IMG/VR virus record: IMGVR_UViG_2728369393_000013
Direction: 5' to 3' (one strand)
DNA length: 36,573 nt
DNA from: a virus
Lineage: Duplodnaviria > Heunggongvirae > Uroviricota > Caudoviricetes
Below the pieces are notes generated by a model that was given only the letters and a program-made list of their open reading frames with translations, searched no databases and was not told where the DNA came from. The translations under genes were made by a program, and so were the position numbers. Below, piece after piece: positions 614-24,060 of the stretch (the first letter of the stretch is position 1; each line of letters opens with the position of its first letter).

Positions 614-1204
614 ATGTCTCGAATTTTTGCTTACTGTCGGATATCAACGCTGGATCAGACCACCGAAAATCAACGCCGGGAAATCGAAAGTGCAGGTTTT
701 AAAATCAAACCTCAGCAAATAATCGAAGAACACATTAGCGGCTCAGCAGCAACCAGTGAGCGTCCTGGTTTTAACCGGTTGCTTGCTCGCCTGAAATGTG
801 GTGATCAATTGATTGTGACAAAACTGGATCGCCTTGGTTGTAATGCAATGGATATCAGGAAAACAGTGGAACAACTGACCGAAACAGGTATCAGAGTGCA
901 TTGCTTAGCATTGGGGGGCATTGACCTGACCAGTCCAACAGGAAAAATGATGATGCAAGTAATTTCAGCAGTCGCTGAATTTGAACGAGACCTTTTACTT
1001 GAACGCACTCATTCCGGGATAGTAAGAGCCCGGGGCGCAGGGAAACGTTTTGGTCGACCACCTGTGTTAAATGAAGAACAGAAACAGGTGGTATTCGAAC
1101 GAATTAAGTCAGGTGTAAGTATAAGTGCCATTGCCCGGGAATTCAAAACCTCGCGGCAAACCATTTTAAGAGCCAAAGCAAAACTTCAGACACCTGACAT
1201 ATAA
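614..1204 (+). CDS. pin: Pin/Gin/Hin-family serine DNA invertase (196 aa)
   Basis: N-terminal [15 protein letters not shown] with catalytic-serine context typical of serine recombinases, C-terminal HTH; length matches PinQ/PinE/PinR; sits next to tail fibre assembly gene. Confidence 0.9.
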
Positions 1205-1759
1205 AAAATAATCTCGGTGTGAGATGCTTTACGTCTTCCAAGCCCCCTTCCTTGCCGTAAATGGAAAGATACATCTAATTATAGAATTTATATGTTTTAC
1301 CCTACGGCAGTGCTGGCCATTCAATATCCTGTGCAGTTGACGTATCAACACGGTTCAGCAATACCCGATACTTTTTCCATGCTTCCAGCAACGAGATTTC
1401 TTCCTCCGTTGCAATTTCCAGATCTGCAGCATCCTGAAGCGGCGCAATATGCTCACTGGCTACCTGCATCAGGTTGTTTTTTGTTTCTTCCGCCTCCCGG
1501 ATCCGGAACAGTTTTTCTGCTTCTGCATCTTTCACCCAGGCTGTGCCGTTCCACTTCTGAAACTCCCCTTCCGGCGATAACCAGGTAACATTTTCCGGTA
1601 ACGGACCGAGTTCAGAAATAAATAACGCGTCCCCTGACGCTACGTCATAAACCGTTTTACCCGATGGTCTTCAACGAGATGCCACGATGCCTCATTGAGG
1701 TAGCCTGAGTTTAACGGACACTCCTTCCTGAAATAGAATGGCATCAGAAGGAGCTAATA

Positions 1760-2062
1760 ATGAGCAGAAAAACCCAACGTTACTCTAAAGAGTTCAAAGC
1801 CGAAGCTGTCAGAACGGTTCTTGAAAATCAACTTTCGATCAGTGAAGGCGCTTCCCGATTATCTCTTCCTGAAGGCACTTTAGGACAATGGGTTACCGCC
1901 GCCAGAAAAGGGCTCGGTACTCCTGGTTCCCGCACGGTGGCTGAACTGGAATCTGAAATTCTGCAACTGCGTAAGGCGTTAAATGAAGCTCGCCTTGAGC
2001 GAGATATATTAAAAAAAGCAACAGCGTATTTTGCACAGGAGTCGCTGAAAAATACGCGTTAA
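1760..2062 (+). CDS. IS3-family transposase OrfA (HTH, leucine-zipper region), 100 aa
   Basis: MSRKTQRYSKEFKAEAVRTV... typical IS3 OrfA; ends just upstream of OrfB with slippery heptamer near 3' end. Confidence 0.85.
   Translation: MSRKTQRYSKEFKAEAVRTVLENQLSISEGASRLSLPEGTLGQWVTAARKGLGTPGSRTVAELESEILQLRKALNEARLERDILKKATAYFAQESLKNTR
2022..2028 (+). promoter_or_regulatory. Programmed -1 ribosomal frameshift slippery site AAAAAAG for OrfAB fusion transposase
   Basis: A AAA AAG motif in the orfA/orfB overlap region, the canonical IS3-family frameshift signal. Confidence 0.6.
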
Positions 2063-2097
2063 TCGAACAATGGCGACAACAATTTCCCATTGAAGCG

Positions 2098-2916
2098 ATG
2101 TGTCAGGTATTTGGTGTATCCAGGAGCGGTTATTACAACTGGGTACAGCATGAACCCTCAGACAGAAAACAAAGTGATGAGCGGCTAAAACTGGAGATTA
2201 AGGTGGCACATATCCGCACTCGCGAAACATATGGAACCCGGCGGCTCCAGACGGAGCTGGCAGAGAATGGCATCATCGTTGGTCGTGACCGACTGGCACG
2301 TCTTCGTAAGGAGCTAAGGCTACGCTGTAAGCAGAAACGCAAGTTCAGAGCGACTACGAACTCGAACCACAATCTGCCAGTTGCGCCAAATCTGCTGAAC
2401 CAGACGTTCGCTCCTACAGCACCAAATCAGGTCTGGGTGGCGGACCTGACGTATGTTGCCACACAGGAGGGATGGTTGTACCTCGCTGGCATCAAAGATG
2501 TTTATACGTGCGAAATTGTCGGCTACGCCATGGGAGAGCGCATGACAAAAGAGCTGACAGGTAAAGCCCTGTTTATGGCGCTCAGGAGCCAGCGCCCACC
2601 TGCCGGGCTAATCCACCACTCTGATCGAGGTTCACAGTACTGCGCATACGATTACCGGGTCATACAGGAGCAGTTTGGTCTGAAAACATCAATGTCGCGT
2701 AAAGGTAACTGTTACGACAACGCTCCGATGGAAAGCTTCTGGGGAACGCTGAAAAATGAGAGCCTGAGCCACTATCGTTTTAATAACCGGGATGAAGCCA
2801 TCTCAGTAATACGGGAATACATTGAGATTTTCTACAATCGTCAGCGTCGTCACTCTCGTCTGGGGAATATCTCCCCGGCAGCCTTCAGGGAAAAATATCA
2901 TCAGATGGCTGCTTAA
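2098..2916 (+). CDS. IS3-family transposase OrfB (DDE integrase core), 272 aa as annotated from first ATG
   Basis: Contains conserved integrase-core stretches ([32 protein letters not shown]); true product likely OrfAB via frameshift. Confidence 0.85.
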
Positions 2917-3142
2917 AAAAAGAACAAATGGTAGTGTCCGCTATTGCCAGTACACCTCACATCACTGTTGAAAACAGCCACAAAGCCAGCAGGAATATCT
3001 GGTGGTGCAATATCGGTACTGTTTGCTGGCAGACCTGTATGAGGCGGAATATATGCGTCACCTTCACCAATAAATTCATTAGTTCCGGCCAGCAGATTAT
3101 AAATTTTTATGGTCCGTGGTTGTTCACTCATTCTGAATGCCA

Positions 3143-3973
3143 TTATGCAAGCCTCACAATATAGTTAAATGCGATGTTTTTGACGGTGTTTTCCGTGTTA
3201 CCAGCAGCGTTAACGGTGATGGTGTGTCCATGTGAACCAATCGCAACGGAGTGCGTATGAGCACCAATACCGACAGTATGCGCGTGTGCACCTGCAGATG
3301 CTGCTGTGCCGGACAGTGAGTGGCTATGATTACCATCTGTACTGGTATTAGCTAACCACCCCGTAGACATACCTACTGAGCCTTGTACACCCCAGGTATT
3401 TTGACCTGAGCTTGTATAACCATATTGATAAGTATCTTTAAAAACACTGGGGTTAAATCGACGGCCATCTCTATGGCTGTGATTACCAGCTGCATTCGTG
3501 CTGCCACTTAAACTATGGGTATGCGCACCAGTGTTATTCGTGGATTTAGTGCCGTAATCAAACGACGATGTGGTTTTCGTCCCCAAATCCGTACTGGATG
3601 CGCTGGCGCTGTGGGTATGCGATTTAATGCCGTCCTGTTCCTGAGACAATACGGCCCGACCACTGGCAGGTTTGCCCTTAATCGTCCAGCCACGCATATC
3701 AGGGATCACGCCTGACGGATAAGCCGCTGCAAGTTTCGGGTAGGCAGATTTGTCAAAAGTCTGCCCCTGCATCAGGGCATAACCAGACGGAACGGTATCT
3801 GATGGCCACGGGATTGGTGCACCGACTGGATAAAACTCTGCAGGAGGATGAGCTGAGGTGTAAAGCTGCGCCCACGGCGACCAGTTTGCGTCGGTCGTAT
3901 CCCGTCGTGAACGAATAAATGCCGGAGCATGAGCACCGCTTGTATCCGGACGTGCTGACATCCTGTCCGGCAA
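3143..3973 (-). pseudogene. stf: Side tail fibre (stf) C-terminal receptor-binding remnant, 276 codons, lacking the N-terminal shaft
   Basis: Gly/Ser/Thr-rich sequence with repeated HxH motifs (GAHTHS, GNHSHR, GNHSHS, GAHAHT, GAHTHS, GSHGHT) typical of phage tail fibre tips; stop overlaps tfa start; upstream frame is the gene I remnant rather than stf N-terminus. Confidence 0.7.
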
Positions 3974-4162
3974 TACGCATCTGATACCAGCCGTCGCTCA
4001 GTTTCTGACGAAACGCAGGGAGCTGTGTGGCCAGCGCCCGGATGGCTTCGGCCCCGTTTTCACACGAAGGTCGATGCGGCGGCCAAATCGTTGCAAATCC
4101 CCGTAAAGGCAGATGCGTGCCATGCCCGGTGACGCCAGAGGGAGTGTGTGCGTCGCTGCCAT
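3946..4162 (-). pseudogene. I: Lambda gpI-like tail tip assembly gene remnant: 5' part only, frameshifted, 3' end deleted
   Basis: Minus-strand translation from ATG at 4162 gives MAATHTLPLASPGMARICLYGDLQRFGRRIDL, shifts frame at a G4 run (4052-4055), then [36 protein letters not shown]; homology stops at about 3946. Confidence 0.7.
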
Positions 4163-4802
4163 TTGTCGGTATACCTCTCTCGTTTGCTCAGTTGTTCAGG
4201 AATATGGTGCAGCAGCTCGCCGTCACCACAGTAAATGGCGGCATGATTCGGCACCGATGAACCAAAACAGCACAGCAGCACATCGCCCGGCTGCGCCGCT
4301 GACAACGGCACCTGATACAGCCCTGTGGCCTCCAGATTATCCAGATAGAGATTCTGACCGTGACGCCACCAGTCATCCTCGCGGTGAAAATCCGGAATCT
4401 CAATCCCCGCCAGATGGTAAGCATCCCGGAACAGCGTGTAACAGTCCGTCACCCCGTGCTCAAAGCGCCGCCCGGTAAGATGCGGCACACAGCGGAACTT
4501 GTGAATCGCCCCCGGCAGACCAGCCACCACGGCAAATCACTCTGCACCTGCAGCCGCCGGTCAGCCTCACTCAGCCAGGGCAGACCACCGGGATGACTGT
4601 GGACCAGCGCCACAATCTCACCCTGCATTTGTGCACGCAACCAGTCCTCCGGCGACATCCGGAAATACTCCTCCGGCTCACCGGAGATATTCACGCAGGG
4701 GAAATATCTTTCCCCCTCCGGCGTTCTCACTACGAAGCCGCACGACTCCGCTGGCGCACATCGTCGGGCGTGCGCCAGAATCGCTGATTCTGTCTCTGTC
4801 AT
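4060..4802 (-). pseudogene. K: Lambda gpK-like tail tip protein (NlpC/P60-type), frameshifted near 4500
   Basis: Two overlapping minus ORFs (4449-4802 and 4060-4530) carry N- and C-terminal halves of a gpK-like protein (ESCGFVV...HSHPGG and IHKFRCVPHLTGRRFEHGVTDCY). Confidence 0.75.
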
Positions 4803-4807
4803 GGGAT

Positions 4808-5506
4808 TTACTGCGAAAGTTTGTTAATGGAAAGGAAGCCGCCAAAGTTGCCGACATTATTGCGAAACTTACAGCCACTCAGGCATTTGCTGCATTTATC
4901 CTTCGTGATATCGGACGTCGGCTGGTCATATTCATCCGCGACCGCCGGACCGTGATAACCGCACTCATCACCGCGATAGGTCCAGGTGCAGGTATTAGCC
5001 AGCATGATGCGCCCCGGAAAAACGGCACCATCCGTTTCAGTCGGCGTGGACAGTACAAAGGAGGCACTGACCGCGCTCAGTTCGCTGCACTGCTCGATGC
5101 GCCAGCGGCTAATCACCTCCTGCTCCGGATCGGCGTCGCTGTTTCCGTTGACGAAGTTCACCGCATCCAGAAAACGGGCATAAACCTTACGCCTGACCAC
5201 CGTTCCGCCGACCAGACTCTGTAGATCTTCCGCCATCCCGGTGACCATGCCATACAGGTTAGAAACCGTCAGCGTGGGGCGCGTACTGGTGCCTTTGCCA
5301 TTCAGTTCGAAACCACTCCCCTGAATGGGATACGCCTGATACTGTCGCCCCTGCCAGGTGACCGGCTCACCTTTTTCGTTCTGCTCATTACAGAAAAAAT
5401 AACGTTCTCCACCAACCTCTGTCAGATCGATTTCCCAGAGCACCACGCTGGCAGACTGCTCCGCACGGGTGCATTCATTCAGTGTTTCCTGTCGGATATC
5501 CTGCAT
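4808..5506 (-). CDS. L: Lambda gpL-like tail tip assembly protein (232 aa)
   Basis: Length and position between M and K as in lambda; Cys-rich C-terminus; synteny. Confidence 0.75.
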   Translation of the reverse strand: MQDIRQETLNECTRAEQSASVVLWEIDLTEVGGERYFFCNEQNEKGEPVTWQGRQYQAYPIQGSGFELNGKGTSTRPTLTVSNLYGMVTGMAEDLQSLVGGTVVRRKVYARFLDAVNFVNGNSDADPEQEVISRWRIEQCSELSAVSASFVLSTPTETDGAVFPGRIMLANTCTWTYRGDECGYHGPAVADEYDQPTSDITKDKCSKCLSGCKFRNNVGNFGGFLSINKLSQ

Positions 5507-5835
5507 CAGTTCACCACCTGTTCAAACTCTGCGCTGAACTCAACACGCAGCATACTGACCCGCGACGACCATTTTGCGCAGGTCACCTTTATCTGCCGCC
5601 ACTCATAAGGCGGCGTCCACAGAAAGGATTTCCAGCCACCGTGCTCTTCCAGAAACGACTCCAGTACCGTGGCCTCCTCACGGGGGACAGAAAGCGTCAC
5701 GCTGTACGTTTTCAGGTTGGCATTCAGCCCGGCAGGCGCTCGCTGGGAATAGCCATCACCAAAGCGCACCTTTCTTACAGAAGGGGCCGAAGCCACATCC
5801 ATACCGGGTTTCACTTTCCAGCGGAAGGTCTTCAT
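5506..5835 (-). CDS. M: Lambda gpM-like minor tail protein (109 aa)
   Basis: Size and position immediately downstream of the tape measure gene; synteny. Confidence 0.75.
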   Translation of the reverse strand: MKTFRWKVKPGMDVASAPSVRKVRFGDGYSQRAPAGLNANLKTYSVTLSVPREEATVLESFLEEHGGWKSFLWTPPYEWRQIKVTCAKWSSRVSMLRVEFSAEFEQVVN

Positions 5836-8391
5836 CGTCCACCTCCGGAGAACAGGCCACCATCACGCATCTGTGTCTGAATTTCATCACGGGCACCCTT
5901 GCGGGCCATGTCATACACCGCCTTCAGAGCAGCCGGACCTATCTGCCCGTTCGTGCCGTCGTTGTTAATCACCACATGGTTATTCTGCTCAAACGTCCCG
6001 GACGCCTGCGACCGGCTGTCTGCCATGCTGCCCGGTGTACCGACATAACCGCCGGTGGCATAGCCGCGCATCAGCCGGTAAAGATTCCCCACGCCAATCC
6101 GGCTGGTTGCCTCCTTCGTGAAGACAAACTCACCACGGTGAACAATCCCCGCTGGCTCATATTTGCCGCCGGTTCCCGTAAATCCTCCGGTTGCAAAATG
6201 GAATTTCGCCGCAGCGGCCTGAATGGCTGTACCGCCTGACGCGGATGCGCCGACACCAACAGCCCCGCCAATGGCGCTGCCGATACTCCCGACAATCCCC
6301 ACCATTGCCTGCTTAAGCAGAATTTCTGTCATCATGGACAGCACGGAACGGGTGAAGCTGCGCCAGTTCTGCTCACTGCCGGTCAGCATCGCCGCCATAT
6401 TCTGTGCAATACCATCAAAGGTCTGCGTGGCTGCACTTTTTACCTGCGACATACTGTCCGTGGCGCTCTCTTCCCACTCACTCCAGCCGGACTTCAGGCC
6501 TGCCATCCAGTTCCCGCGAAGCTGGTCTTCAGCCGCCCAGGTCTTTTTCTGCTCTGACATGACGTTATTCAGCGCCAGCGGATTATCGCCATACTGTTCC
6601 TTCAGGCGCTGTTCCGTGGCTTCCCGTTCTGCCTGCCGGTCAGTCAGCCCCGGCTTTTCGCATCAATGGCGGCCCGTTTTGCCCGTTGCTGCTGTGCGAA
6701 TTTATCCGCCTGCTGCGCCAGCGCGTTCAGGTGCTCCTGATACGTAACCTTGTCGCCAAGTGCAGCCAGCTGGCGTTTGTACTCCAGCGTCTCATCTTTA
6801 TGCGCCAGCAGGGATTTCTCCTGTGCAGACAGCTGGCGACGTTGCGCCGCCTCCTCCAGTACCGCGAACTGACTCTCCGCCTTCCACAAATCCCGGCGCT
6901 GCTGGCTGATTTTCTCATTTGCTCCGGCATGCTTCTCCAGCGTCCGGAGTTCAGCCTGAAGCGTCAGCAGGGCAGCATGAGCACTGTCTTCCTGACGATC
7001 GCCCGCAGACATCTTCACGCCGGACTGTTTCGGCTTTCTCAGCGTCGCTTCATAGTCCTTTTTCGCCGCCGCCATCAGCGTGTTGTAATCTGCCTGCAGA
7101 ATTTTCCCGTCCTTCAGTGCCTTGTTCAGTTCTTCCTGACGGGCGGTATATTTCTCCAGCGGCGTCTGCAGCCGTTCGTAAGCTTTCTGCGCCTCTTCGG
7201 TATATTTCAGCCGTGACGCTTCAGTATCGCTCTGCTGCTGCGCATTTTTGTCCTGTTGACTCTGCTGTTCAGCCTTCTTTCTCGCGGCTTCAAGCGCAAG
7301 ACGGGCCTTTTCACGATCATCCCAGTAACGCGCCCGCGCTTCATCGTTAACAAAATAATCATCCTTGCGCAGACTCCAGATGTCGTCCGCTTTCTTAAAC
7401 GCAGCCTCTGCCTTAATCAGCATCTCCTGAGCGGTATCAGGACGACCAATATCCAGCACCGCATCCCACATGGATTTGAATGCCCGCGCTGTCCTGTCTG
7501 CCCAGGTCTCCAGCGTACCCATGTTCTCTTTCAGGCGGCGGGTCTGGTCATCAAACCCTTTCGTCGCGGCCTCGTTCGCCGCCTGCAATGCCCCGGCTTC
7601 ATCGCCGGAACGCTGCAACTGAGCAACATACGCAATCTGCTCCGCCGTCACGTTATGGAACTGGCGTGCCATCGCTGTCAGCCCTGACGTCGGGTCTGTG
7701 GTCAGCTTCCGAAGGCTTCAGCGACCTTGTCCACCTCCACGCCGGATGCAGAGGAGAAACGCGCCACACTCTGGCTGATGGATGCAATCTGAGCCTCACC
7801 GCTTACTCCCGCCTTAACCAGTGCGCTGAGTGACTCGCTGGTCTGGTTAAACGTCAGCCCTGCCGCCTGCCCGGCTCTGGACAGGACCAGCATACGATCT
7901 GCCGTCAGACCCGACTGATTGCCGGAAAGGACAAGCGTTTTGTTGAAATCGGACAGGGTTGAGTTGCCCTGATACCAGGCATACGCCAGCGCACCGGTCG
8001 CCACCGCCAGCGAGGTGGCCCCGACCATCGGCAGGGTGATCGCACCGGCAAGCCCCCGGAACATGGGGATCATCCCGCCGAAGGAGTCCTTCACCTGCCC
8101 CCCCTGTTGCAGCAGGATCAGCCACGGACTTTGCCCGCCTGCAAGCTGCGTGGCCACGTCAGTGAACTGCGCAGGCAGCATACGCATGGCGGCTTTATAC
8201 TGCCCGACGGAAATTCCCGCTTTCTGTGCAGCCAGCGCCTGCCGGTTCATCGACTGTTCAACGACTGCCGCTGTTTTTTTCGCATCACTTTCCGTACCGG
8301 AAAAATGACGCCTGACTCTGGCCATCTGCTCGTCAAATCTGGCCGCATCCAGACTCAAATCAACGACCAGATCGCCTACCGGTTCAGCCAT
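5832..8391 (-). pseudogene. H: Lambda gpH-like tail tape measure gene broken into three frames (8391-7702, 7672-6644, 6560-5832)
   Basis: N-terminal MAEPVGDLVVDLSLDAARFDEQ, middle MARQFHNV...coiled-coil Ala/Gln/Lys-rich, C-terminal MSEQKKTW...GGR; frame changes at AA-for-AAA near 7690 and G4-for-G5 near 6612. Confidence 0.8.

Positions 8392-11716: not shown

Positions 11717-11730
<14 letters not shown>
11332..11730 (-). CDS. FI: Lambda gpFI-like DNA packaging protein (132 aa from MTKDELIARL start)
   Basis: Acidic protein MTKDELIARLRSLGEQLNRDVSLTGTKEELALRVAELEEELDD...; listed ORF has a spurious N-terminal extension across the intergenic hairpin. Confidence 0.8.
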
Positions 11731-14321
<2,591 letters not shown>

Positions 14322-14347
<26 letters not shown>

Positions 14348-14670
14348 TCAGCAACCCCGGTATCAGTTCATCCAGTGCGGCTGCTTTGTTCATGGCTTTG
14401 ATGATATCCCGTTTCAGGAAATCAACATGTCGGTTTTCCAGTTCCGGAAAACGCCGCTGCACCGACAGGGGGATCCCGTCGAGAATACTGGCAATTTCAC
14501 CTGCGATCCGCGACAGCACGAAAGTACAGAATGCGGTTTCCACCACTTCAGCGGAGTCTCTGGCATTCTTCAGCTCCTGTGCGTCGGCCTGCGCACGCGT
14601 AAGTCGATGGCGTTCGTACTCAATAGTCCCTGGCTGGAGATCTGTCTCGCTGTCCTGCCTCAGTTCTTCA
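14322..14670 (-). pseudogene. Nu1: Terminase small subunit Nu1, C-terminal part, separated from its N-terminus by IS66-family insertion
   Basis: ...EELRQDSETDLQPGTIEYERHRLTRAQADAQELKNARD... continues the frame interrupted at 17203. Confidence 0.8.
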
Positions 14671-14755
14671 GTAAGCGTAAACTGACCGCCGTATGTAGCC
14701 ATCAGACGAGAATTGGTAACTTAGACGCCCATCTGATATAGACGGACATCTAAGT

Positions 14756-15181
14756 ATGGAATTACAGGACTGGCGAAAAGAACCTCGTAAAAACTATTCG
14801 AATGAATTCAAACTTCGTATGGTGGAACTGGCATCACAACCTGGAGCTTGTGTTGCACAGATTGCACGTGAAAATGGCGTCAATGATAATGTTATTTTCA
14901 AATGGCTCAGGCTCTGGCAGAACGAAGGGCGTGTTTCGCGGCGTCTTCCGGTAACGACCTCTTCTGACACTGGCGTTGAATTATTACCTGTAGAAATAAC
15001 GCCGGATGAGCAGAAAGAACCTGTGGCGGCCATTGCGCCGTCTTTATCCACTTCCACTCAGACCAGAGTCAGTGCCAGTTCCTGCAAGGTGGAATTCCGT
15101 CACGGTAACATGACGCTGGAAAATCCATCGCCAGAGCTGCTCACGGTGTTGATCCGTGAACTGACCGGGAGGGGAAGATGA
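14756..15181 (+). CDS. IS66-family accessory protein Orf1 (TnpA-like), 141 aa
   Basis: First ORF of IS66-type operon, overlaps next ORF by ATGA. Confidence 0.75.
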   Translation: MELQDWRKEPRKNYSNEFKLRMVELASQPGACVAQIARENGVNDNVIFKWLRLWQNEGRVSRRLPVTTSSDTGVELLPVEITPDEQKEPVAAIAPSLSTSTQTRVSASSCKVEFRHGNMTLENPSPELLTVLIRELTGRGR

Positions 15182-15528
15182 TCTCACTCCCATCAGGTAC
15201 CCGTATCTGGCTCGTTGCCGGCGTTACCGATATGCGTAAATCCTTCAACGGACTGGGAGAACAGGTACAACATGTGCTGAATGATAATCCCTTCTCCGGT
15301 CACCTGTTTATCTTCCGTGGCCGACGGGGTGACACCGTCAAAATTCTTTGGGCTGATGCTGATGGTCTGTGCCTGTTCACCAAACGCCTGGAGGAAGGCC
15401 AGTTTATCTGGCCTGCGGTACGTGACGGCAAGGTATCCATTACCCGCTCGCAACTGGCAATGCTCCTCGATAAGCTGGACTGGCGTCAGCCAAAAACATC
15501 CAGCCGTAACTCACTGACAATGTTGTAA
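15178..15528 (+). CDS. IS66-family Orf2 (TnpB-like), 116 aa
   Basis: Conserved IS66 Orf2 sequence (ISLPSGTRIWLVAGVTDMRKSFNGL...). Confidence 0.8.
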   Translation: MISLPSGTRIWLVAGVTDMRKSFNGLGEQVQHVLNDNPFSGHLFIFRGRRGDTVKILWADADGLCLFTKRLEEGQFIWPAVRDGKVSITRSQLAMLLDKLDWRQPKTSSRNSLTML

Positions 15529-15558
15529 AAAACTCCTGACCGCATTATAAAAACGGTC

Positions 15559-17172
15559 ATGAGTCAGAAATACCTCATTCGCATCGCAGAGCTGGAAAGA
15601 TTGCTCTCTGAGCAGGCTGAAGCCCTCCGTCAGAAAGACCAGCAACTGAGTCTGGTTGAAGAGACGGAAGCCTTCCTGCGCTCTGCACTGACACGTGCCG
15701 AAGAAAAGATCGAAGAAGATGAACGGGAAATAGAACATCTGCGGGCTCAGATAGAAAAACTGCGCCGGATGCTGTTCGGTACCCGTTCTGAAAAACTGCG
15801 TCGTGAAGTTGAACTGGCTGAGGCTCTGCTGAAACAACGTGAACAGGACAGCGATCGTTACAGTGGGCGGGAAGACGATCCTCAGGTTCCCCGCCAGTTG
15901 CGACAGTCGCGCCATCGTCGTCCGTTACCGGCACACCTTCCCCGAGAAATACACCGCCTGGAGCCAGAAGAAAGCTGTTGCCCGGAGTGTGGCGGTGAGC
16001 TGGATTATCTGGGGGAAGTCAGCGCTGAACAGCTGGAACTGGTGAGCAGTGCCCTGAAAGTGATCCGCACAGAACGGGTAAAAAAAGCCTGTACAAAATG
16101 TGACTGTATTGTTGAAGCACCGGCGCCGTCCCGCCCGATAGAGCGTGGTATCGCGGGCCCCGGATTACTTGCCCGCGTGTTAACGGGAAAATACTGCGAA
16201 CATCTGCCACTGTATCGTCAGAGTGAAATCTTTGCCCGCCAGGGTGTCGAACTGAGCCGGGCCTTACTCTCCAACTGGGTTGACGCGTGCTGCCAGTTAA
16301 TGACACCGGTGAATGATGCCCTGTACCGTTATGTAATGAACACCCGCAAGGTTCACACTGATGACACACCGGTAAAGGTACTGGCACCGGGTCAGAAAAA
16401 GGCGAAAACAGGGCGTATCTGGACGTATGTCCGGGATGATCGCAATGTGGGTTCGTCATCTCCTCCAGCGGTCTGGTTCGCGTACTCGCCGAACCGGCAG
16501 GGGAAACACCCGGAGCAACACCTCCGCCCCTTCCGGGGTATCCTGCAGGCGGATGCGTTCACAGGTTACGACAGGTTGTTCAGTGCAGAACGTGAAGGTG
16601 GTGCACTGACAGAAGTTGCGTGCTGGGCCCATGCCCGGCGAAAAATCCACGATGTATACATCAGCAGCAAAAGTGCGACGGCAGAAGAAGCCCTGAAGCG
16701 AATCAGTGAACTGTACGCCATCGAGGATGAAATACGGGGATTACCGGAGTCAGAGCGTCTTGCCGTCAGGCAGCAGCGAAGCAAAGTGTTACTGACGTCG
16801 CTGCATGAATGGATGGTGGAGAAGAATGGTACGCTGTCGAAAAAATCCAGACTGGGCGAAGCGTTCAGCTATGTACTGAATCAGTGGGATGCCCTCTGTT
16901 ATTACAGTGATGACGGTCTGGCGGAGGCGGATAATAATGCTGCGGAAAGAGCGCTTCGTGCAGTCTGTCTCGGAAAGAAAAAGTTTATGTTCTTTGGCAG
17001 CGATCACGGCGGCGAGCGTGGAGCACTGTTGTACGGGCTGATCGGCACCTGCCGTCTGAACGGTATCGATCCGGAAGCGTATCTGCGCCATATCCTGAGC
17101 GTACTGCCGGAATGGCCTTCCAACCGAGTTGATGAACTCCTGCCATGGAACGTAGTACTCACCAATAAATAA
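15559..17172 (+). CDS. IS66-family transposase Orf3 (TnpC), 537 aa
   Basis: N-terminal coiled coil, CxxC...CxxC zinc motif (CPECGG...CTKCDC), DDE-type core; stop 30 bp before right IR. Confidence 0.85.
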   Translation: MSQKYLIRIAELERLLSEQAEALRQKDQQLSLVEETEAFLRSALTRAEEKIEEDEREIEHLRAQIEKLRRMLFGTRSEKLRREVELAEALLKQREQDSDRYSGREDDPQVPRQLRQSRHRRPLPAHLPREIHRLEPEESCCPECGGELDYLGEVSAEQLELVSSALKVIRTERVKKACTKCDCIVEAPAPSRPIERGIAGPGLLARVLTGKYCEHLPLYRQSEIFARQGVELSRALLSNWVDACCQLMTPVNDALYRYVMNTRKVHTDDTPVKVLAPGQKKAKTGRIWTYVRDDRNVGSSSPPAVWFAYSPNRQGKHPEQHLRPFRGILQADAFTGYDRLFSAEREGGALTEVACWAHARRKIHDVYISSKSATAEEALKRISELYAIEDEIRGLPESERLAVRQQRSKVLLTSLHEWMVEKNGTLSKKSRLGEAFSYVLNQWDALCYYSDDGLAEADNNAAERALRAVCLGKKKFMFFGSDHGGERGALLYGLIGTCRLNGIDPEAYLRHILSVLPEWPSNRVDELLPWNVVLTNK

Positions 17173-17202
17173 GCGTCAATACGGTGCTCCGTTGACGCTT
17201 AC

Positions 17203-18919: not shown

Positions 18920-19088
18920 TTCCTCTTTTAGTCTGTTATGACTTTCCTGGTACACAGTAGTGTCAATTATATGGAGCAAACGTATAAAAGATAAGATGAA
19001 ACATCGCAATAATCAACATACGACGGTCTAAATTTCACACAAACAGATAAAGATGATTATCATTTATTATCAATGCATTAGAATCAAA

Positions 19089-19319
19089 TCAATTCAAGAG
19101 TCTCATTGCTGCTTCCAGAATTTCTTCTGAAGTTACATGTCGATCCGCTGCTACATAAATGACTTTATGATCTCCGGTCAGAGATGGAAACCCTGCAGCC
19201 ATTACAGTGAGGTGTGTTGTTTCGCCATTTGGATATTCACGCATGATGGTGTTAACTCCGGTCATCACTGGCACTACCATTGCTGGTTCAGAGTTAAAAA
19301 AAACTATTATTTTTTTCAT
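19089..19319 (-). CDS. YnfN-like small prophage protein
   Basis: ORF with start assumed at MKKIIVFF; synteny between gnsB and cspI. Confidence 0.4.
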   Translation of the reverse strand: MKKIIVFFNSEPAMVVPVMTGVNTIMREYPNGETTHLTVMAAGFPSLTGDHKVIYVAADRHVTSEEILEAAMRLLN

Positions 19320-19365
19320 AATGTTACCGTAATATGTGAGTATCCATCGACTAGACACTAAGCAA

Positions 19366-19390
19366 AAAAGCTCCCGAAGGAGCCTTCATT
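19366..19390 (-). terminator. Rho-independent terminator (minus strand) downstream of cspI
   Basis: Plus AAAAAAGCTCCCGAAGGAGC: on minus strand a GCTCC/GGAGC hairpin followed by T6. Confidence 0.55.
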
Positions 19391-19590
19391 TTCACTTTCT
19401 TAAATCTAACGACAGACGGCTAACATTTAAGTATTGTGAAATATTATCAAATGCAATCATCATTGATTTACAAAAGATACATTTTGCCCCGAAAGGATTC
19501 CTGTCAGAAACATCAAAAGATGATGTTCTATACTGAGAACCATGGCAACACGGGCATCTAAAGTGAATATGGTTTGTAATATTTTCTACC

Positions 19591-19803
19591 TCAAAGTGCC
19601 ACAACATGAACAGCCGCGGGGCCTTTAGGTCCGTTCTCAATACCAAATTCGACTTCCTGATTCTCAGTTAACGTTTTGAAATCGTTGCTCTGAATAGCTG
19701 AGAAATGGACAAACACATCTTTGCTACCATCTTTCGGCGTGATGAAACCAAAACCTTTTTCAGGGTTAAACCATTTCACTAAACCAGTCATTTTGTTAGA
19801 CAT
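19591..19803 (-). CDS. cspI: Cold shock protein, CspA family (70 aa)
   Basis: [38 protein letters not shown]... canonical CSD with RNP motifs. Confidence 0.9.
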
Positions 19804-20166
19804 CATTATTACCTTTTGAAGAAGTTAGCCCTTGGGCAGAATGGTCCGAAAAAAAATATCAGAGAGAAAAACCAACAAGGAAATCTCAAGAGGTACAAAT
19901 AATAAAATTATAACAATGACTGCTTCAGATAATTTTGTAACAAACCAGAACACCATTAACGCATGATTAACCAACCATAGCAAGGATTACTTTTGTAAAG
20001 AAAAACACACGAATGAAACAATAGCTTTATTTATTAATAAAACGTGTCATTCTGTCTAATGACCTTTTATCTTACCCTTAAGATTTCAAGGATTTTGACT
20101 CATGGAAGAGTCCTTTTTATTTAAATTTCACATTCAGCGCTAAAAATAATCCGATTTAATATTAAT

Positions 20167-21194
<1,028 letters not shown>

Positions 21195-21307
21195 GGATAT
21201 TTATCAGGATTTATCGGCTTCAAATCCCCGGATATGTTAAATCTTACCTCACCAGTGATGGGCACTGGCGGGAGGAGGATGTCAATCTGATAAACACAGA
21301 GGCGACT

Positions 21308-21568
21308 ATGGATTACACAAATCTACCAAAACAAACTTTTGCTGATTTAATCGCACTCAGGCAAGCAGTCGTAGCTCTAATCAACTTGTTGCCGGAGAAG
21401 GAAAAGGAATTAGTTAAAGCGCTTCTTAACAGAACTGCCGCCGATTTTTCATCATATCCACTGACAGATGACCTTGCGGACCTTCCTGAATTAATTGCAG
21501 CGTCCGCCAATAAGCTTACTGAAGAGATTTACCCTCCTCAAAAATCTTCACAAAATTCCTGCGAGTAA
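21308..21568 (+). CDS. Hypothetical small acidic protein (86 aa) on opposite strand inside lysis cassette
   Basis: ATG preceded by GAGG; followed 20 bp downstream by strong hairpin plus T8 terminator. Confidence 0.4.
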   Translation: MDYTNLPKQTFADLIALRQAVVALINLLPEKEKELVKALLNRTAADFSSYPLTDDLADLPELIAASANKLTEEIYPPQKSSQNSCE

Positions 21569-22088
21569 CTTCAATGCAATAATCGTAAAACGCCGCAAAC
21601 TGCTCATCGCGGCGTTTTTTTTCATCTTCAGAAGGAATCAGCACCGACAATTTTTTATTCAGATCAGCGACGCTGCCCTCCAGTTTTTCAATGGGCGATT
21701 CAATATCATCTTTTTCTGACCGCAATGCCGTCGGTGGCGTCTTCAGAGAACCAGTAATTCTTCCCGGTAGCTTTCCTTTGTAGGTTATCCACACATTCTG
21801 CGCCTCTAAAATTATGGGGCGCTTTTCCGGCGACTGCTCATCCCCTTCACATAACCCGGCAGCAACATCCAGGAAGACCTGTCTGATGCTCCTTCTGGCT
21901 GCTGCCTCATAAAACTCCAGCGCGGCACCTTCAACACGGTCCAGCGAGATGTCCAAGTCAAAAATTTCACCGTCAAAGTGTTTTTTGTCCCGTAAGGCTA
22001 CAGTTACCGCCACTTTATTCTCAAAATTGCGAACTCCTTTCACAACCAGTTCATAGTCTTGAGTCATTGGATTACTCTCTTCTCGCAA
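21516..22088 (-). CDS. Hypothetical protein between holin and endolysin (190 aa as listed; YdfR-position gene)
   Basis: Long ORF in lysis operon orientation overlapping holin stop; start uncertain (M1 or M8); 3' coding overlaps terminator hairpin. Confidence 0.45.
21590..21626 (+). terminator. Rho-independent terminator (hairpin ACGCCGC...GCGGCGT followed by T8), potentially bidirectional
   Basis: AAAACGCCGCAAACTGCTCATCGCGGCGTTTTTTTT seen directly. Confidence 0.65.
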
Positions 22089-22287
22089 CCTTACGCCTGT
22101 CTTCTTTAATCTTGAAATAAAGGTTTGTCAGATATGTCAGCAGGCCAAAAACCAGACTACCCAGCACACCGATTGCAGCCCACTGTGACGGAGTTACTTT
22201 ATCGAGTAACTGCAATGCCCAGAAACCAGCATTACCAGCCGATGTGCCATAGGCGATACCTGTTGTTAACTTATCCATTGATTTCAT
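22072..22287 (-). CDS. essQ: Lambdoid class II holin (71 aa)
   Basis: [66 protein letters not shown]: two TM segments, charged C-terminus. Confidence 0.8.
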
Positions 22288-22505
22288 ATCCTCACCCCGA
22301 TGTACACAGATGGTGCAATATGTTTGAAAAGATCGGAGTCTATGGGTTAGTTTTTATAGCAAACGTTGTTCTCAACGGCGCTAAAAAACAGACACATTAA
22401 AAATGTGGGTAATTATTTTAAAAGAAAATCATATATTAAATAATAATACGAGATATGTTTTCATATTTAGTGTACTGTATACGGCCATTTATACAGGAAA
22501 AGCCT

Positions 22506-22676
22506 ATGTCAGAACGTAAAGACTCAAAATCACGCCGTAATTATCTCGTTAAATGTTCCTGCCCAAACTGCACCCAAGAGTCAGAACACAGTTTTTCAAG
22601 AGTACAAAAAGGTGCTCTTTTGATCTGCCCTCATTGCAACAAAGTATTCCAGACAAATCTTAAAGCTGTAGCTTGA
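22506..22676 (+). CDS. Small zinc-ribbon protein (56 aa, CxxC...CxxC)
   Basis: MSERKDSKSRRNYLVKCSCPNCTQESEHSFSRVQKGALLICPHCNKVF; AGGA SD upstream of ATG at 22506. Confidence 0.45.
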   Translation: MSERKDSKSRRNYLVKCSCPNCTQESEHSFSRVQKGALLICPHCNKVFQTNLKAVA

Positions 22677-22735
22677 TTGATTTTATTCGTAACAAGTATT
22701 TTTTATATTTTAATAACATATTTAAAGCAGATAAT

Positions 22736-22760
22736 AAAAAACCCGCCTGAGCGGGTTTAA
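22736..22760 (-). terminator. Rho-independent terminator for cspB (minus strand; weaker on plus)
   Basis: AAAAACCCGCCTGAGCGGGTTT: CCCGC/GCGGG stem with T-run on minus strand. Confidence 0.65.
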
Positions 22761-23039
22761 TATTGTGGTGCTTTTTGTGGGAGTCATCCACTTACGCACT
22801 TTGTTTTGCTATGCTAGCAGTTAGCTTCTGCTGTAAAACTATTCATGCAGCAAACCTGCACTTCACCACAATGGTTAGCATACTTTTCCTGATTAAGTTA
22901 TTGCCAAATATGCTGGCCATTGTTTCATGTATTGGATCTCCTTACTATTTATTAAAGAGATCCAATATTCACCACTCTGTCTGTATCTCCACTCAGGCAT
23001 CAGCCTTCTTCGTTATCGTATACAGACAAACTATTAATT

Positions 23040-23255
23040 TTAATCAGTAATTATGACATTTGCTGCTGCAGGACCTTTAGCACCACTCTCTACAGAGAAG
23101 GTAACCTTTTGACCTTCAAATAAGGTTCGAAAATTATCATTCTGAATCGCAGAAAAATGCACAAACACATCTTTACTACCATCAACAGGAGAAATAAAGC
23201 CAAAACCTTTATCAGCGTTAAACCATTTTACTAAACCAGTCATTTTATTTGACAT
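23040..23255 (-). CDS. cspB: Cold shock protein CspB-like (71 aa)
   Basis: [53 protein letters not shown]... Confidence 0.9.
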
Positions 23256-23555
23256 TCTACATTCCTTAACTTGAGCCTTTCGGCATAAATGGCTTGTATA
23301 ACAGAAACGACTTCGTACTTAATTGGAGAGACTCAAAGAAGGAATAAGTGAATAACACCTGAAATGAGAACTGCTTTAGTAAACTACTTCGTATATCGTC
23401 TGTTCTTCAAACCGACGCAATCATTAACGCATAGTTGAACATATGAAGCAATGTTTATTTTAGACATCCAGCCATCTTCAACCCCATCAAAAAACTATAG
23501 CTTTCTTCAGGAACGTGTGTATAGTGCGCCAAGTTATCAGTATTAAGGAATTTTT

Positions 23556-23768
23556 TTGTCCCGTAAAATGACAGGAATTGTCAAAACCTTTGACGGCAAA
23601 AGCGGCAAGGGTCTTATCACCCCATCCGATGGTCGTATCGATGTCCAGCTTCATGTTTCAGCGCTCAATCTCCGCGATGCAGAAGAAATTACCACCGGAT
23701 TACGCGTGGAATTTTGCCGGATAAATGCTCTGCGTGGCCCTTCAGCTGCCAATGTTTACCTTTCATGA
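23556..23768 (+). CDS. cspF: Cold shock domain protein CspF/CspH-like (70 aa)
   Basis: [41 protein letters not shown]...; divergent from cspB as in Qin. Confidence 0.85.
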
Positions 23769-24060
23769 GCTATATTAAAGCTTTAATTTCAGGCCCCATC
23801 GGATCACACATGGAGAGTTTTTATGAATAACCCCGTCTGTCTTGATGACTGGTTGACTGGCTTTAAAAGCTTATGCTGTACTTTGGCCGTAATAGCTCTG
23901 CTAATAATATAATAAGCAGACTCATTGTGTTTAGGGACATTGTACTGGAAGAAAACATTTTAAACATCAGGCAAATAACCAAGTCACCAGCTAAATAATA
24001 AGTTAACAGACATGAGTCCCGGGATGAGATTCAACATTACCATTGCCCCATTTAAAGCAC

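Follow-up and report, generated by a model that had tools for sequence, protein, structure and literature searches.

IS600 in the tail fibre assembly gene tfa of a cryptic lambdoid prophage of Escherichia coli O145:H25, next to a probable error of consensus sequence

Lambda-type Tfa proteins are known from phages lambda, mEp460 and 2H10, and also as the products of tfaQ and tfaR of Qin and Rac. What these systems share is a Caudo_TAP domain along with a gene, tfa, that is located adjacent to stf. Of 5426 complete genomes of E. coli, 3749 contain an intact, 576-bp tfa with a coverage of at least 80%, and the gene is present in lambdoid phages as well. The uninterrupted allele that a sequence-only reading of the locus described here had proposed to look for in other genomes does exist.

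IS600, a member of the IS3 group of the IS3 family, was first described in Shigella sonnei. A match that covers at least 80% of this element is contained in 1614 of the 5426 complete genomes of E. coli. Ooka et al., in 2009, are said to have described for another element, IS629, the driving of prophage and genome diversification in EHEC O157. The locus considered here likewise involves the spread of an IS3-family element into a prophage gene, as also is the case with the IS-driven diversification of EHEC O145:H25 that is treated by Lorenz et al. (2017, PMC5567499). There, O145:H25 strains are credited with 53–54 chromosomal copies of IS600, most of them with complete ends and most judged to be active, with disruption by IS600 of iee, the gene for an IS-excision enhancer, proposed as a reason for the expansion. 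A supplementary table of the same paper lists IS600 at 1264 bp, and its supplement includes a prophage, P07/P09, at prfC; the passages of text and supplement that were searched do not single out an insertion in tfa.

The stretch of DNA analysed (the window) is 36,573 nucleotides in length and was obtained as viral record IMGVR_UViG_2728369393_000013. It is from a cryptic, mEp460/2H10-like lambdoid prophage that adjoins prfC in E. coli of EHEC O145:H25. The locus in question is the right end of this prophage, where the order is ydfK (positions 1–234), a recombinase gene, and tfa together with its IS600, beyond which are tail genes encoded by the minus strand (Table 1). Here, it is very likely that a complete IS600 has transposed into codon 61/62 of tfa, and probable that the additional frameshift carried by this gene in the window is an error of consensus. 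In comparison with lambda-type Tfa systems generally, that is, tfa of the window is split at 61/62, is frameshifted, and has as its partner an stf that is truncated.

Table 1. Features at the right end of the prophage, with positions counted from the first letter of the window
Feature	Position	Strand	Remarks
Pin-like serine recombinase (invertase)	614..1204	+	Pfam Resolvase and HTH_7; convergent with tfa
tfa, 3' fragment	1302..1695	-	From codon 61/62 through codon 191, ending with TAG (1302-1304); carries a frameshift in the window
Contracted run CCC	1660..1662		CCCC in each relative compared (alignments to L001, L002, L003, L006)
Target-site duplication CAT, left copy	1693..1695		Single CAT in intact alleles
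IS600 (IS3 family), complete	1696..2959	+	1264 bp; transposase genes antiparallel to tfa
IRL, TGAGGTAGCC...	1696..1722	+	27 nt, 70% complementary to 2933-2959 (repeat search)
orfA	1760..2062	+	100 aa; HTH_Tnp_1
Slippery run A7G	2011..2018	+	orfA frame TTA AAA AAA GCA; heptamer A AAA AAA
Hairpin, candidate frameshift stimulator	2024..2057	+	Arms 2024-2035 and 2046-2057
orfB	2098..2916	+	272 aa; HTH_21 and rve DDE integrase core
IRR, ...TACACCTCA	2933..2959	+	27 nt, pairs with IRL (repeat search)
Target-site duplication CAT, right copy	2960..2962		Single CAT in intact alleles
tfa, 5' fragment	2960..3143	-	Codons 1-61, first base of codon 62 and duplicated CAT
stf remnant	3143..3944	-	C-terminal ~265 codons, without native start; Pfam Collar and Phage_fiber
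Tail assembly gene I remnant	3945..4124	-	First ~150-180 nt; PGAP 'tail assembly protein, missing C-terminus'

The element begins with TGAGGT at 1696 and ends with ACCTCA at 2959, and the limits, length and ends which the sequence-only reading had assigned to it are exact. Its terminal inverted repeats are imperfect and are of the form 5'-TG...CA-3', as is expected of the IS3 family. Over the whole of its 1264 bp it is 100% identical in nucleotide sequence to copies annotated as 'IS3-like element IS600 family transposase', and such identical, annotated copies reside on plasmids of S. sonnei and E. coli and also on E. coli chromosomes. The element had been described earlier as 'IS600-like', of which the IS600 is to be retained while the '-like', given identity of this degree, is to be dropped. 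Between it and annotated IS600 copies (e.g., BCV59_RS11805, WP_085948186.1, of E. coli CFSAN004176) there is no detectable difference, so that it is in its lineage-specific site alone that it departs from other IS600 copies. As judged from its sequence, then, the element is IS600 itself, in complete copy, and it is the one copy of IS600 found in the window.

The coding capacity of the element also is in order. OrfB matches the NCBIfam model NF033516 (transpos_IS3) at 7e-100, and no stop interrupts the -1 frame, that of orfB, between the slippery site and orfB itself. This site had been given previously as A6G, which is incorrect, as the run instead is A7G. Upon translation, a -1 slip within that run results in an open OrfAB of 385 aa, i.e., one without stops, and this fusion matches the Pfam families rve (6e-26), HTH_Tnp_1 (2e-23) and HTH_21 (3e-13). 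The identical copy in CFSAN004176 is annotated by PGAP as a two-piece CDS with 'programmed frameshift'. Starting 6 nt 3' of the slippery run is a hairpin with a stem of 12 nt, 92% complementary, which is present too in the minimum free energy (MFE) fold of positions 2011–2100 and which may serve to stimulate frameshifting. Both of its inverted repeats being in place, along with orfA and orfB and a 385-aa fusion that is open, the earlier description of the element as intact is borne out.

By analogy with the biology of other IS3-family elements, OrfAB would be produced by ribosomes that slip into the -1 frame on A AAA AAA G, as presumably aided by the hairpin. That protein would then drive copy-out-paste-in transposition by way of a circular intermediate, and staggered cuts, 3 bp apart in the target, would give rise to the duplication of CAT.

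Whether that duplication is genuine can be addressed by means of empty sites. For this comparison the window minus 1696–2962 was aligned to tfa of E. coli A3 (L001, positions 6008–6583) and of phage 2H10 (L002, positions 3008–3583), and against neither is there an alignment gap at the excision joint. The empty site, that is, contains one CAT, from which it follows that the 3-bp duplication is genuine rather than a coincidence of 1/64, just as had been proposed on the basis of the identical CAT flanks. Direct duplication of 3 bp of target also is as expected of the IS3 family. The insertion point is codon 61/62 of tfa, and the junction, …GATGCCTCAT/TGAGGTAGCC…, occurs, among the 5426 complete genomes of E. 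coli, in that of CFSAN004176 (NZ_CP014583.1) alone. The same junctions are found as well in assembly GCA_003015325.1 (L006). A scan for the exact 30-nt left junction among contigs, with one genome per species, gave no match, which says little about an insertion that is confined to one lineage of E. coli. That tfa might be a hot spot for IS600 was considered but rejected, as the junction is present in that one complete genome only. The insertion itself already is on record, since in RefSeq BCV59_RS11805 has on each side a fragment of tfa that is annotated as a pseudogene.

What has been interrupted is a genuine tfa of the lambda type, which in the window is a pseudogene. Its identification as tfa, as made by the sequence-only reading, is upheld both by the existence of uninterrupted, 576-bp homologues, to which the excised gene is 99.3% identical in E. 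coli and 98.8% identical in phage 2H10, and by the match of the repaired protein, of 191 aa, to PF02413 (Caudo_TAP) at 3e-43. That protein is 2 residues away from Tfa of E. coli A3 (WP_024240243.1). None of the NCBIfam models matches either Tfa or the stf remnant. In terms of position, tfa is found directly 3' of stf, with the stf stop overlapping the tfa ATG (TAATG) at 3143. The 5' part of the gene as now present is an open reading frame of 76 aa, spanning 2913–3143, which runs 15 codons into IRR, and the product of the tfa 5' fragment matches PF28596 (Caudo_TAP_N). IS600 therefore parts the N-terminal 61 residues, Caudo_TAP_N, from the Caudo_TAP domain, and tfa is inactivated as a consequence. 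Owing to IS600 along with the frameshift at 1660–1662, what is seen in the window is not the single, intact open reading frame of approximately 191–194 codons of a lambda-type tfa.

The GGGG that is present on the coding strand of intact tfa alleles is GGG in the window, at a point 30 nt beyond the insertion as the gene is read. The earlier reading held that deletion of 1696–2959 restores a single, uninterrupted tfa frame, which it does not: The frame from the ATG at 3143 stops early following excision, with or without removal of one CAT, and the continuation, GKTVYDV...WPALP*, is found in another frame. This failure is a consequence of the contraction by one base of the run at 1660–1662. Both of the other assemblies which possess the same insertion, CFSAN004176 and GCA_003015325.1, have C4 at this point, as do both outgroups, E. 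coli A3 and phage 2H10, and in the former two a 191-aa Tfa is split cleanly. The claim of a 'cleanly split' tfa consequently does not hold for the window, with its 1-bp contraction, though probably it does for the organism.

The contraction in tfa is not on its own. As a whole, the window aligns to positions 2069005–2105587 of CFSAN004176 (NZ_CP014583.1) with 10 indels and 2 substitutions, and every one of those indels is a single-base contraction, in the window, of a run of C or of G (at 1660, 4051, 4508, 6647, 7708, 10653, 14294, 31974, 32380 and 35934). One is within tfa, one within what is left of tail assembly gene I, and one within an intergenic stretch. Broken by the remaining seven are K, the tape measure gene (twice), a tail protein gene, the gene for the terminase large subunit, and ymfL (twice). 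Each of these genes is unbroken in CFSAN004176, with K intact in GCA_003015325.1 as well. The frameshifted products specific to the window, an N-terminal 117 aa of K and an N-terminal 229 aa of the tape measure protein, have no counterpart on record. One of the differences of another kind, at position 662, is an A in the window, as also in A3 and 2H10, versus a C in both other assemblies, where the recombinase has Pro in place of Thr as a result. As to the origin of the sequences compared, CFSAN004176 and its sister CFSAN004177 are described in PMC5567499 as EHEC O145:H25 that were assembled with HGAP3/Quiver from PacBio RS II P4/C2 reads. The length given there for the prfC prophage of CFSAN004176 is 52,094 bp, versus 52,084 bp for that of CFSAN004177, a difference of exactly 10 bp, and the window probably derives from CFSAN004177 or a similar sister assembly.

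Ten homopolymer frameshifts versus two substitutions within 36.5 kb are the signature of long-read consensus error. The CCC at 1660–1662 accordingly is read, from this pattern of differences, as probably a homopolymer error in the consensus of a long-read assembly, and not as a second mutation. It may be asked nevertheless whether tfa has been subject to two real, independent lesions, that is, first IS600 and then the true loss of 1 bp from the G4/C4 run in the course of pseudogene decay. The window does after all have CCC there, a second hit on a gene that already was dead would have been neutral, and the window sequence, given its retention of the ancestral A at 662, is from an isolate distinct from those of the two other assemblies, one that could carry real private mutations. 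Counting further against an artefact is a strand bias, with 8 of the 10 contractions in C runs of the plus strand. What renders two real lesions unlikely is that such an explanation must accommodate all of the contractions and not just one: 10 of these versus at most 2 substitutions over 36.5 kb, or about 1 frameshift per 3.6 kb, with the contractions striking genes that are unbroken in a genome which is nearly identical. Extrapolated, that rate corresponds to more than 1000 frameshifts per genome. No viable clinical isolate can credibly bear such a number, whereas unpolished long-read consensus sequences typically do. Very improbable, by comparison, are two further ideas: that all ten contractions are real, as a strain-specific burst restricted to a silent prophage and due, for instance, to a transient defect in mismatch repair or to error-prone repair, or instead that a hybrid open reading frame is expressed as an N-terminally swapped chaperone. 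This hybrid frame begins with an ATG at 1744, at the IRL end of the element, and is directed outward into the Caudo_TAP domain, with a length of 147 aa in the assemblies that have C4.

With a consensus error thus retained as the probable basis of the frameshift, the insertion proper also may be questioned. With more than 50 identical copies in the lineage, IS600 is just the type of repeat that assemblers misplace, and the repeat conceivably could have been collapsed or misplaced into a tfa that in reality is uninterrupted. That such an artefact could result in two precise junctions along with a 3-bp target duplication, and do so in common across three deposits (the window, NZ_CP014583.1 and GCA_003015325.1), is scarcely conceivable; an IS of 1.26 kb is bridged by long reads, which measure 10 kb or more, and the published assemblies, according to PMC5567499, were verified by optical maps. 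Somewhat less remote, though still quite improbable, is that the copy is complete but nonetheless transpositionally dead or silenced. An inhibition at high copy number that is mediated by OrfA/OrfB is possible, as discussed in PMC5567499, but the lineage shows a recent expansion to 53–54 copies. The copy in tfa moreover is 100% identical to many others, including copies on plasmids of the same strain, and has all of its open reading frames and both of its ends intact. To describe the IS600 copy in tfa as 'intact and possibly active', as was done originally, would on these sequence grounds seem reasonable.

The prophage into which IS600 presumably transposed is decayed in additional ways. Homology of stf to that of E. 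coli A3 stops at 3944, with the remnant annotated by PGAP as 'phage tail protein, missing N-terminus', and window positions 3946–6500 align to H-M-L-K-I' of phage 2H10. Approximately 7 kb has been lost at the joint between 3944 and 3945, comprising the greater part of I, the whole of J and lom, and ~2.3 kb from the 5' end of stf. This I'-'stf joint is seen in 1 of 5426 genomes. A tie between the deletion and IS600 was considered and set aside, as there is no sign of one, with the joint found 985 bp from IRR. Elsewhere, head genes are missing, truncation has left the portal gene joined near FI, and ISEc23, of the IS66 family, splits the small terminase gene, nu1. The neighbourhood of the recombinase on the other hand is normal, with 97 bp separating its gene from tfa, and it was asked whether stf and tfa might be an invertible cassette that is flipped by this Pin-like enzyme (cf. 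Mu G, P1 C, e14 P). This was rejected: The order stf-tfa-pin-ydfK is common to E. coli A3 and phage 2H10, and as this arrangement, lacking a second cassette, is normal in these intact relatives, there is no invertible segment. With I, J, lom and stf lost, in whole or in part, the tail fibre can no longer be made, and for that reason the consequence of losing Tfa is nil and the insertion is of little functional weight.

For anyone making use of this sequence, the approximately one homopolymer frameshift per 3.6 kb of window implies that every call of a pseudogene or frameshift here may be a consensus error. With regard to the insertion, nothing is new as such, the burst of IS600 having been published and the insertion annotated. 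IS600 in tfa, that is, is one more among the 53–54 chromosomal insertions that have been reported from O145:H25, with an importance that extends little beyond correct annotation. Being restricted, each of them, to a single genome among the 5426 complete E. coli genomes, the tfa::IS600 junction and the 3944/3945 joint are possible markers of the O145:H25 lineage.

Window and CFSAN004176 (the E. coli O145:H25 chromosome NZ_CP014583.1, here 'the reference') are distinguished by substitutions at only two positions, 662 and 30270, along with ten single-base contractions in the window, every one found in a C or G homopolymer run (eight in C and two in G, as read on the plus strand) and with no expansions seen at all. 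The contractions break K, a tail protein gene, the large terminase gene, ymfL, and the tape measure gene, the latter being divided as a result into three ORFs. Probably these ten changes are consensus errors of the long-read assembly from which the window derives.

The substitution at 662 lies within the pin-like serine recombinase gene. There the window's A is the ancestral state, that is, one held in common with E. coli A3 and phage 2H10, relatives in which the tail fibre assembly gene, tfa, is intact. Both sister assemblies, i.e., the reference as well as GCA_003015325.1, which carries the same IS600 insertion in tfa, possess instead the C, and the window therefore represents a distinct sister source.

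Features of the window, with sequence differences stated relative to CFSAN004176
Feature	Position	Strand	Details
Recombinase substitution	662		codon 17; A (Thr) in window vs C (Pro)
Second substitution	30270		T vs G; adjoins a G run
Single-base C/G-run contractions	1660, 4051, 4508, 6647, 7708, 10653, 14294, 31974, 32380, 35934		
Predicted hybrid ORF, IRL end	1744 downward	minus	ATG in IRL; reads outward into Caudo_TAP (Tfa) domain
Predicted hybrid ORF, IRR end	2913-3143	minus	tfa N-terminal fragment plus 15 codons of IRR; 76 aa
Deletion joint	3944/3945		5' ~150-180 nt of I (tail assembly) joined to last ~800 nt of stf (side tail fibre)
Portal gene, N-terminal fragment only	~11730-12223		annotated 'missing C-terminus'
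IS66-family element in nu1 (small terminase)	~14670-17176		tnpA 14756-15181, then tnpB and transposase
Cargo genes	1-234 and ~19000-24000		ydfK, cspI, cspB, cspF, ynfN, gnsB, ynfQ

The deletion between I and stf spans about 7 kb when measured on phage 2H10: J and lom are gone entirely, I has lost most of its length, and stf lacks ~2.3 kb. This joint is present in only one of 5426 complete E. coli genomes. Just ~50 bp separate the truncated portal gene from FI (DNA packaging), so the genes for the head protease, decoration protein and major capsid protein appear to have been deleted from this prophage. PGAP annotation of the identical reference identifies the element in nu1 as ISEc23, and annotation of that same reference indicates as well a cold-shock and small-protein cargo set which resembles that of Qin.

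Hybrid ORFs are predicted at both ends of IS600, with that starting in IRL called as a 147-aa gene in an assembly retaining the intact C4 run (CCCC) of tfa. Junction promoters are a typical feature of IS3-family circles. At the right end of IS600, 9 nt from its terminus, is an outward-facing TTGCCA hexamer (2945-2950), and IRL contains TAGCCT; together these could supply a candidate IS600 circle-junction promoter, i.e., one with a spacing of ~18 given a 3-bp spacer.
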